From NCBI GenBank assembly GCA_937959175.1, contig CALGAS010000257.1:1-31326 (forward strand): a stretch of 31,326 nt of DNA, read 5' to 3'. This document shows positions 11,979-12,986 of the stretch, one piece after another. Position numbers and translations under genes: made by a program. The stretch comes from an uncultured bacterium (GTDB lineage: Bacteria; Planctomycetota; Planctomycetia; Pirellulales; UBA1268). Within the stretch, counting starts at the first letter, position 1. Each line of letters starts with the position of its first letter. Under the pieces are notes generated by a model. The model ran no database searches and had not been told where the DNA came from. It was given only the letters and a program-made list of their open reading frames with translations.

Positions 11979-12986
11979 TCAGGATCGCTCATCGTCCTGC
12001 CACGCACCCGACATGCTGCCAACCATGCGTTGGCCTCCGTGGCCTCCCCGTGCTCGATTCCCTCGGACGGGCGGACCACGACGTCGTCTCGGGGCAGCCA
12101 GTTGAGCGACGATCGCATCGGCATCGGCTGCCAGGCTGTCGTCCACCGCGAGCCGGGCGGTGGTGATGCGGGCGGCGTGCATGGCGGTCGTGTGGTCGCG
12201 GCCGCCGATGCTCCTCCCGATCGCGGCGTAGCTGAGATTGGTGAGGCGGCGGGCCAAAAGCATCGCGAGACCGCGGGCCCGGGCGATCGTCCGGCTGCGT
12301 CCGCTGCCGGTCAGTGTGGCGGTGGCGATTCCAAACTGCCGGGCTGTCACCGAGACGATTCGGGCGATGCTCGGCCGCGCGACAACCGGCTCGGCCGGCT
12401 CGGCCACATCCGCCGTGATCGTCACGACCAGGCCGGCTGCCAGCCGGGCCGCCAGGTCATCCTCCAGCGGTCCGGCATCGGGGTGGCTGCTCAGTCCGAG
12501 GCACCAGTCGGCGGCGGCGGCGGCATCGAAGAGTTGCCGAAAGGCCGCCTGGCGGGCGGGCCCGCCGATGGCTTCGAGGCGTTGCACGATCACCAGCTGC
12601 CGGCGGCAGAAGCGGCTGCGAAGCCGATCCCAGCGGTCTGCGTTGGTCGCGACATCCATCTCCTGGCCAAGGCTTTTCCCGTCAGTGGCAAGGCAGGGAA
12701 GGCCCTCGGCTTGGGCCCGGTCGGCCAGGTCATCGAGCAGCGAACTGGCCGCCGTCGGGGTGACCACGCAGAGCGGACCCTGCCGAAAGCCCGTTGCGGC
12801 TTCCGAGCGGTCGAGCAGCTGGTGGATCGCATAGCGAACGAGGGCGACGCGGGATCCCGTTGATCCTCGGTTTGGTCCCTGATTTGTTCGCTGATTTGTT
12901 CGCTGGTTTGATCCCGGGTTTGATCCCTGGCGATCGGATGATCGAGGATCATCCGGGCGGTCACGGCAGCTGCGAAGTTCCGACAC
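11979..12986 (-). CDS. dnaA: DnaA-family paralog with degenerate AAA+ domain and intact domain IV, about 335 aa
   Basis: C-terminal RSRTIARARGLAMLLARRLTNLSYAAIGRSIGGRDHTTAMHA matches DnaA domain IV. The middle aligns by eye to domain IIIa (LEDDLAARLAAGLVVTI). Start uncertain; GTG 12986 has GGGAGA 6 nt upstream. Confidence 0.85.
   Translation of the reverse strand: MSELRSCRDRPDDPRSSDRQGSNPGSNQRTNQRTNQGPNRGSTGSRVALVRYAIHQLLDRSEAATGFRQGPLCVVTPTAASSLLDDLADRAQAEGLPCLATDGKSLGQEMDVATNADRWDRLRSRFCRRQLVIVQRLEAIGGPARQAAFRQLFDAAAAADWCLGLSSHPDAGPLEDDLAARLAAGLVVTITADVAEPAEPVVARPSIARIVSVTARQFGIATATLTGSGRSRTIARARGLAMLLARRLTNLSYAAIGRSIGGRDHTTAMHAARITTARLAVDDSLAADADAIVAQLAAPRRRRGPPVRGNRARGGHGGQRMVGSMSGAWQDDERS
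12855..12926. repeat. Six imperfect 12-bp tandem units (core TTG[A/T/G]TC[C/G])
   Basis: Units tcccgttgatcc, tcggtttggtcc, ctgatttgttcg, ctgatttgttcg, ctggtttgatcc, cgggtttgatcc. In the DnaA-like frame they read GSNP-GSNQ-RTNQ-RTNQ-GPNR-GSTG. Confidence 0.85.

Follow-up and report, generated by a model that had tools for sequence, protein, structure and literature searches.

The window analysed here, the whole 31,326-nucleotide stretch of contig CALGAS010000257.1 from an uncultured planctomycete of the order Pirellulales, encodes next to dnaN a paralog of DnaA. DnaA is the near-universal bacterial initiator, and its ATP binding and its lid are held to be indispensable for the oligomer. What this lineage appears to keep at its origin, under selection, is a DnaA with neither ATP site nor lid but with the arginine finger and the DNA-binding domain. 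As the full-length DnaA is encoded elsewhere, the paralog most probably helps or restrains initiation without ATP and is not itself the initiator. On balance, we lean towards regarding it as a functional, non-catalytic descendant of the ancestral dnaN-adjacent dnaA, acting as an ATP-free, DNA-anchored terminal protomer. To our knowledge, the planctomycete phylum has no Hda, SeqA or YabA-type systems and its replication control is essentially unstudied; the paralog is a candidate for a new class of initiation regulator in Planctomycetota.

The paralog lacks the ATP site and the lid of DnaA and retains domain IV

The elements of the paralog, whose coordinates were confirmed by translation, are as follows.

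11979..13085, minus strand: maximal open reading frame of the DnaA paralog (368 residues, P0001; translation)
12849..13085, minus strand: low-complexity N terminus, residues 1-79, where DnaA has domains I and II
12414..12848, minus strand: degenerate AAA+ alpha/beta core, residues 80-224, remnant of domain IIIa (hhalign, AlphaFold2, Foldseek)
12738..12776, minus strand: Walker A position, reading PLCVVTPTAASSL, with no GxxGxGK[ST]
12576..12596, minus strand: Walker B position, reading LVIVQRL (QR for DD)
12444..12446, minus strand: R214, the arginine-finger position of box VII, invariant within the subfamily
12369..12413, minus strand: 15-residue linker ADVAEPAEPVVARPS in place of the lid of about 70 residues (domain IIIb with sensor II)
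12126..12368, minus strand: domain IV (Bac_DnaA_C) with the basic loop GSGRSR (Pfam, PDB profiles, template-modelling (TM) score, dN/dS)
12186-12206, minus strand: domain IV signature GGRDHTTAMH
11979..12125, minus strand: Arg/Gly-rich C-terminal tail, fast evolving

The paralog was aligned with two groups of relatives, the short ATPase-competent paralog of other families (group B) and the full-length DnaA (group C), the window's own type being group A. In this alignment the Walker A position carries GPLCVVTPTAASSLL where DnaA has GPxGxGKT/SHL, LVIVQRL stands where DnaA has the Walker B motif hhhhDD, and GLSSHP occupies the place of sensor I, whose canonical form is absent. Box VII reads LEDDLAARLAAGLVV: its first arginine is lost and its second, R214, is kept; in the alignment R214 falls on the arginine finger, the second arginine of the DRLxSRF motif. 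After GLVVTIT the chain runs through the 15-residue linker directly into domain IV (IARIV...GSGRSR...LAMLLARRLT...GGRDHTTAMHA), and the lid, sensor II included, is missing by comparison with both groups; the distance from box VII to the domain IV signature is 81-89 residues in lidless forms versus 143-171 in lid-bearing relatives. An assembly error or frameshift hiding the motifs, which the original prediction had named as the outcome that would overturn it, was ruled out: no Walker A or P-loop motif was found in any other reading frame of the paralog region, and the same architecture recurs in dozens of independent assemblies.

Profile searches gave a matching picture. Pfam recognised Bac_DnaA_C alone (PF08299, residues 241-306, E 5e-21), the Bac_DnaA ATPase domain was not matched in the paralog even at E 0.1, and neither Pfam nor NCBIfam returned a match N-terminal of residue 215, so that no domains I/II were recognised. 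Against the DnaA equivalog TIGR00362 the paralog scored 72.7 bits, versus a cut-off of 343.9, over the last 92 profile positions (345-436). The changes at Walker A, Walker B and box VII, the missing domain IIIb with sensor II, the low-complexity stretch in place of domains I/II and the retained domain IV had all been read correctly in the original prediction. Its start codon, GTG 12986, is one of three that are possible, as the frame is open to ATG 13085 and ATG 13016 could also serve.

A profile of the N-terminal half matched the ATPase core of the group B paralogs with an hhalign probability of 98.8% (E 8e-17) and full-length DnaAs with a probability of 65% (E 6e-5), and the family profile matched Aquifex DnaA (1L8Q/2HCB) over both the core and domain IV. 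Domain IV matched the PDB profiles 1J1V, 3PVP and 8BTG. Structure prediction, suggested earlier as a check, gave an AlphaFold2 model with a predicted local distance difference test score (pLDDT) of 90.2, in which a five-stranded alpha/beta core, carrying two initiator-type helices after strand 2, is joined to domain IV by a linker where pLDDT dips to low confidence. The best Foldseek matches of this model were DnaA structures (8BTG, 1L8Q and 2HCB), with a TM score of 0.92-0.96 for domain IV; the core matched domain III of DnaA and also Hda (3SC3 among the fold matches). Profiles and model alike identify the N-terminal half as a remnant of the DnaA AAA+ core, a homology that is statistically supported. 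In alignment to 1J1V, the equivalents of E. coli R399, D433, H434, T435 and H439, which we take to be the residues that contact DNA bases there, are all kept.

Because there is no Walker A, Walker B or sensor I and no lid to carry sensor II, DnaA-type ATP binding and hydrolysis by the paralog are excluded as far as its sequence can tell, in line with the earlier view that it is not the initiator.

Within the N-terminal coding part, positions 12860-12929 hold four direct repeats with a 12-nt period that encode the GSNPGSNQRTNQRTNQGPN low-complexity stretch, and protein P0002 is without 12 residues of this stretch. In the C-terminal tail a short motif, VGxMS...DDERS, is common only to the closest relatives.

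A full-length DnaA is encoded elsewhere in the genome

A full-length DnaA was present in every genome of the order that was searched (Pfam Bac_DnaA E 1e-34 to 1e-45; about 290 bits over equivalog positions 3-421), and in 18 of the 18 same-genus genomes first searched it has a domain I region together with intact Walker A and B motifs and sensor II. The assembly from which the window comes consists of 636 contigs and is 87% complete. A Pfam search of it gave no Bac_DnaA match; with the full-length DnaA of the same genus as query, a 5' fragment of the gene was found on another contig (G000:C214:3-800, minus strand), cut off by the contig end exactly at ...IHGPSG, where Walker A begins. In the sister species G039 the gene is complete and encodes GPSGVGKTH, VVDD, box VII and, as its sensor II motif, HARELQGA. 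The true initiator is thus encoded elsewhere, as had been proposed, and in the loci fetched group C never lies next to dnaN.

Domain IV of group C reads RSHSTV..A where DnaA normally reads RDHTTV.H, so that three classical base-contact positions are changed, and its Bac_DnaA_C match still scores well (E 1e-18). Across the aligned full-length DnaAs of the order, of which L163:1501-2910 (minus strand) is one, the signature G-R-R-S/R-H-S-T-V-I-x-A replaces G-G-R-D-H-T-T-V-L-H-A. Going by these motifs, the paralog and the full-length DnaA probably prefer different DNA sites, which makes competition for identical boxes less likely.

The only other Bac_DnaA_C match of the window's genome (G000:C555:5775-6820; L002:1348-2394, minus strand) was rejected as a DnaA. 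It is a 348-residue IS200-like Y1 transposase fused to a DnaA_C-type helix-turn-helix, an architecture known from subclass 2.1 of TnpA-REP (bioRxiv 10.1101/279083).

The core of the paralog is predicted to dock on the ATP face of full-length DnaA

Complex prediction was run on the paralog core (residues 80-232) together with domain III of the G039 full-length DnaA, ATP and Mg. The interaction prediction score from aligned errors (ipSAE) was 0.84 in three runs, versus 0.19 for the best of three controls; this mark is reached by 58 of 80 solved complexes and by 2 of 110 mismatched pairs. The runs agreed in at least 88% of contacts, with a partner pLDDT of at least 82. Full-length DnaA contributes its P-loop (166-168), D229 of Walker B and the helix of sensor II to the predicted interface, and the paralog contributes D209, D210, A213, R214 and A216-V220. 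Conservation is somewhat higher at these residues of the paralog than elsewhere in its core (0.684 versus 0.575, one-sided p 0.016), in a comparison that is not corrected for burial.

In the model that we prefer, domain IV would bind DnaA-box-like sites in or near the origin-dnaN spacer irrespective of nucleotide, and the arginine-finger face of the core would dock on the ATP face of a full-length DnaA-ATP protomer. Since the paralog has no ATP site of its own, it could occupy just one end of a DnaA oligomer. From there, as a DNA-anchored terminal protomer, it would help the filament to nucleate or give it its orientation, or would cap it, or would set off hydrolysis in the manner of Hda, a DnaA-derived AAA+ non-initiator that acts on DnaA-ATP through its arginine finger in the regulatory inactivation of DnaA (RIDA). 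Among the functions put forward in the original prediction, that of a filament capper, here as a donor of an arginine finger, gains support from the docking model only, and simple competition for the same boxes is weakened by the RSHSTV..A motif.

Besides the missing burial correction, several observations weigh against this model. The predicted geometry resembles that of solved DnaA filaments and homo-oligomers (2HCB, 3R8F, 8BTG), and because homo-oligomers of the family have already been solved, the docking pass may reflect likeness instead of binding; the partner, moreover, was the sister species' full-length DnaA, with user-supplied alignments. None of the results favours an activator, a cap or a hydrolysis trigger over the other two. 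The evolutionary rate of the paralog is far above that of dnaN. The gene is missing from roughly half of the window's genus, and five sampled genera show the full-length gene only. In four high-quality same-genus genomes without the paralog, the upstream aminotransferase gene directly abuts the dnaN spacer. One paralog-less genome nests in the DnaN tree (starred support) among paralog bearers that include the window, and two others form a separate clade, a placement in a single-gene tree that implies at least two independent deletions within the genus. Since the paralog has been repeatedly deleted there, its role would be modulatory and not essential. Binding sites did not stand out either: TTATCCACA with up to two mismatches occurs 23 times in the window versus 19.9 expected and is not enriched, and in a k-mer presence scan TTTTCCAC was found in 7 of 22 family spacers, no more than in shuffles. 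Because no spacer word is enriched above shuffled controls, we claim no binding site.

The last result bears equally on a competing explanation that we consider possible but clearly less probable, in which the paralog is a stand-alone DNA-binding regulator. Here only domain IV would matter, the dead core serving as a scaffold or dimerisation module without contact to full-length DnaA, and the protein would act as a transcription factor for dnaN and further genes or would passively occupy DnaA boxes. Domain IV is indeed the most constrained part of the paralog (see the dN/dS values below) and keeps the classical contact residues, the differing contact motif of full-length DnaA means that the two proteins may read different sites, and the gene lies directly upstream of dnaN with a conserved spacer. 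However, the core is under purifying selection as well, R214 and its neighbours are invariant, which a mere scaffold would not need, the complex prediction passes its controls, and the family spacers yielded no enriched binding word.

A bolder extension of the terminal-protomer model, which we regard as rather doubtful, is that the initiator of this family has been split into two paralogs, an origin-encoded ATP-free anchor that retains classical box recognition and the arginine finger, and a relocated, ATP-driven full-length DnaA with a remodelled domain IV. The ATP-free protomer would then be the fixed end of the filament, a delta-prime-like stator or a built-in Hda, and the surviving intermediates would make the anchoring and unwinding parts of DnaA directly testable.

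Both halves of the paralog are under purifying selection

The ratio of nonsynonymous to synonymous substitution rates (dN/dS) was estimated pairwise by the Nei-Gojobori method at unsaturated dS of 0.2-0.6.

Paralog, overall: 0.25-0.30
Paralog, AAA+ core: 0.26-0.35
Paralog, domain IV: 0.15-0.25
dnaN: 0.03-0.13
Neighbouring aminotransferase gene: 0.19-0.29
dciA: 0.15-0.23

The ratio was below 1 in every pair compared, and the lowest part of the paralog was domain IV, for which the original prediction had named a value near 1 as the mark of a pseudogene. As the ratio is well under 1 for both the core and domain IV, the paralog evolves fast, yet purifying selection acts on both of its halves. A pseudogene was ruled out: the frame is open, dN/dS lies at 0.15-0.35, and of the 68 species representatives of the window's genus about 36 share the architecture, with intact frames. 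The architecture also occurs in other genera of the window's family, and a core-only profile run against 1.84 billion representatives placed proteins that are lidless and have no Walker A in at least 45 clusters at 50% identity. A scan of a genome collection with the family alignment returned mostly ordinary domain IV matches and one true member, L043 (Planctomycetota). Among the core-profile matches, P0173, P0164 and P0160 are proteins of 530-670 residues that carry the Bac_DnaA ATPase domain twice in tandem, lack domain IV and bear no relation to the locus studied here.

Most families of the order carry a second, shorter DnaA without domains I/II, which constitutes group B. Groups A and B share their neighbours, the aminotransferase gene upstream and dnaN downstream. 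In a maximum-likelihood tree from a quick search, whose Shimodaira-Hasegawa-like approximate likelihood-ratio test (SH-aLRT) supports are approximate, group A is monophyletic (100) within A+B (100), and A+B is sister to group C (91); the stem branch of group A is long, at 1.48 substitutions per site. The paralog is the positional ortholog of the order-wide short ATPase-competent DnaA paralog.

Within the family, a lid without the sensor II motif is seen in one genus, two genera have no lid and still have GxxGxGKS and one Walker B acid, and other genera, the window's own among them, are lidless with no P-loop. Sister genera thus show the intermediates of a series, suggested by these sequences, in which the lid was lost with the P-loop kept, the P-loop was lost afterwards and the gene was finally deleted. 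Going beyond the original prediction, the gene is dispensable, its decay is stepwise across the family, and the loss is far older than the window's species.

Such a series, with its repeated complete deletions, is also what a decaying remnant would leave, one without present function whose constraint reflects recent ancestry or overlapping origin or promoter signals. The long group A stem and an identity within the genus of 34-42%, versus 77-82% for DnaN, point the same way. We nevertheless consider this explanation improbable in view of the intact frames in so many species and clusters, of dN/dS ratios that, at unsaturated dS, stay well under 1 in each pair and reach their minimum in domain IV, of key residues that are invariant among paralogs only 30-40% identical, and of a fold predicted with high confidence.

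The paralog holds the dnaN-adjacent position

The order of genes at the locus is aminotransferase, paralog, a spacer of about 500 bp, dnaN, dciA and gyrB.

13104..14369, minus strand: class V aminotransferase (cysteine-desulfurase-like), the conserved upstream neighbour, ending 18 nt before ATG 13085
11479..11978, no strand: paralog-dnaN spacer of about 500 bp, candidate oriC and/or dnaN promoter
10330..11478, minus strand: dnaN (beta clamp; Pfam), probable start ATG 11442
9940..10305, minus strand: dciA (Pfam PF05258)
7362..10022, minus strand: gyrB, open reading frame as listed, the true start lying further downstream

That the paralog is held beside dnaN, as had been noted at the outset, agrees with the conserved synteny and, in one relative, with the chromosomal position. 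In G091, a near-complete genome of the same family with a contig of 3.04 Mb, the paralog is lidless, has no P-loop and lies at 753,154-753,771 beside dnaN. The guanine-cytosine (GC) skew sampled along this contig is negative to about 700 kb, is positive between about 770 kb and 2.6 Mb and returns to negative values beyond, which places the cumulative minimum at about 750-770 kb, at the paralog-dnaN locus. The full-length dnaA of G091 is at 1,748 kb, in mid-replichore and about 1 Mb from this locus. An origin-adjacent position is supported in G091; for the window, synteny argues for it. The cumulative skew minimum of the window itself falls at about 21-22 kb, in a stretch that at 31 kb is too short to inform on the origin.

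Besides words that resemble DnaA boxes, the spacer contains an AT-rich stretch and, on its dnaN side, a conserved element, and it is kept also in species without the paralog; the paralog-dnaN spacers of relatives are of similar length. It is very improbable, somewhat more so than the decaying remnant, that the paralog is the origin-recognising half of a split initiator that is required wherever present, binds classical boxes at oriC and recruits full-length DnaA: the origin-adjacent position, the classical domain IV next to the altered one of full-length DnaA and the predicted docking would all suit such a role, but half of the genus and several further genera do without the paralog although neither their spacer nor their type of full-length DnaA differs, and full-length DnaA keeps its well-scoring Bac_DnaA_C.

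The conserved element, GGGCCGTTTCGA...TGATTTTCGGGTACATT...TCCGC, lies in the window at about 11495-11545, some 60-110 nt upstream of the dnaN start, and was seen in the aligned spacers L123, L126, L129 and L131. Present in 8-10 of the 22 family spacers, it was the sole standout of the k-mer presence scan, and it may function as a promoter or leader. Where the paralog is absent, the spacers (L140, L141, L136 and L142) have closely spaced repeats such as GACACGTTTCCGACAC and GACAGGTTTCCGACAGGGTTCCTGACAGGTTTTCCACA upstream of dnaN, and the window has the words TTTTTCGACACG and TTGTTTTGCACG. Such words may represent the lineage's DnaA-box variant. In genus g20 the locus is rearranged, the aminotransferase-paralog pair of G095 (L176) being inverted with respect to dnaN and divergent from it.

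The paralog differs from canonical DnaA, Hda and other known systems

With canonical DnaA (TIGR00362; 1L8Q/2HCB from Aquifex, 8BTG from B. subtilis and 1J1V, domain IV of E. coli) the paralog shares the initiator-clade AAA+ fold, the box VII arginine, a domain IV with RDHTT signature and basic loop, and the position beside dnaN at the origin. It differs in having no domains I/II, Walker A/B, sensor I or lid with sensor II, and its equivalog score comes from domain IV only. The flanking genes, the clade (100), the lack of domains I/II and the domain IV motif are shared with group B, whose members however keep GxxGxGK[ST], usually the Walker B acid or acids, and the full lid (Bac_DnaA E 1e-16 to 1e-30). 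No name for the group B paralog was found in the literature searched.

Hda/HdaA (TIGR03420) is, like the paralog, a non-initiator AAA+ protein derived from DnaA, and appears among its fold matches. In Hda, however, domain IV is absent, the nucleotide site and lid are kept and an N-terminal clamp-binding motif is needed, none of which applies to the paralog. TIGR03420 did not match the paralog at E 0.01, no Hda-like second PF00308 match was found in the window's genome, and no QL[SD]LF-like clamp-binding motif was conserved in the aligned paralog N-termini, by inspection only, which is a weak test. The paralog therefore fails the defining tests of both canonical DnaA and Hda, and is a member of the order's dnaN-adjacent paralog lineage minus the ATPase module.

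The clamp-loader subunit delta-prime (HolB) and the ATP-free subunits of the origin recognition complex (ORC) have lost nucleotide binding, occupy an oligomer end and provide the ATP site of the adjacent subunit with an arginine. By analogy, the paralog may be a further ATP-free AAA+ fold that supplies an arginine at an oligomer end; the assemblies are unrelated, and those subunits have no DnaA-type sequence-specific DNA-binding domain. Chlamydiae, which are PVC bacteria as well, also have more than one DnaA-type protein per genome, with the extra copies DnaA1 and DnaA3 (PMC4989314). These copies retain their full length and the lid and are not in an origin context, whereas here a degenerate, lid-deleted copy holds the ancestral origin position. 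The literature searched yielded no description of planctomycete DnaA paralogs or of a lid-less DnaA.

The forms found in this family amount to a natural separation-of-function series for DnaA, from lidless with P-loop through lidless without P-loop to absent. It is this series, together with a working dnaA relocated from the origin, as in G091, that should mainly interest replication specialists. For annotation there is a warning, in that coordinate 1 of planctomycete genomes may have been set by a dnaN-adjacent "dnaA" that is not the initiator. The complete genome of G029 (6.06 Mb), in which twenty 20-kb samples gave no usable GC-skew polarity, may serve as an example: its record begins at the short paralog (C1:19-1053), presumably annotated as dnaA, and its full-length DnaA is encoded at 3,127,476-3,128,417, about half a chromosome away.

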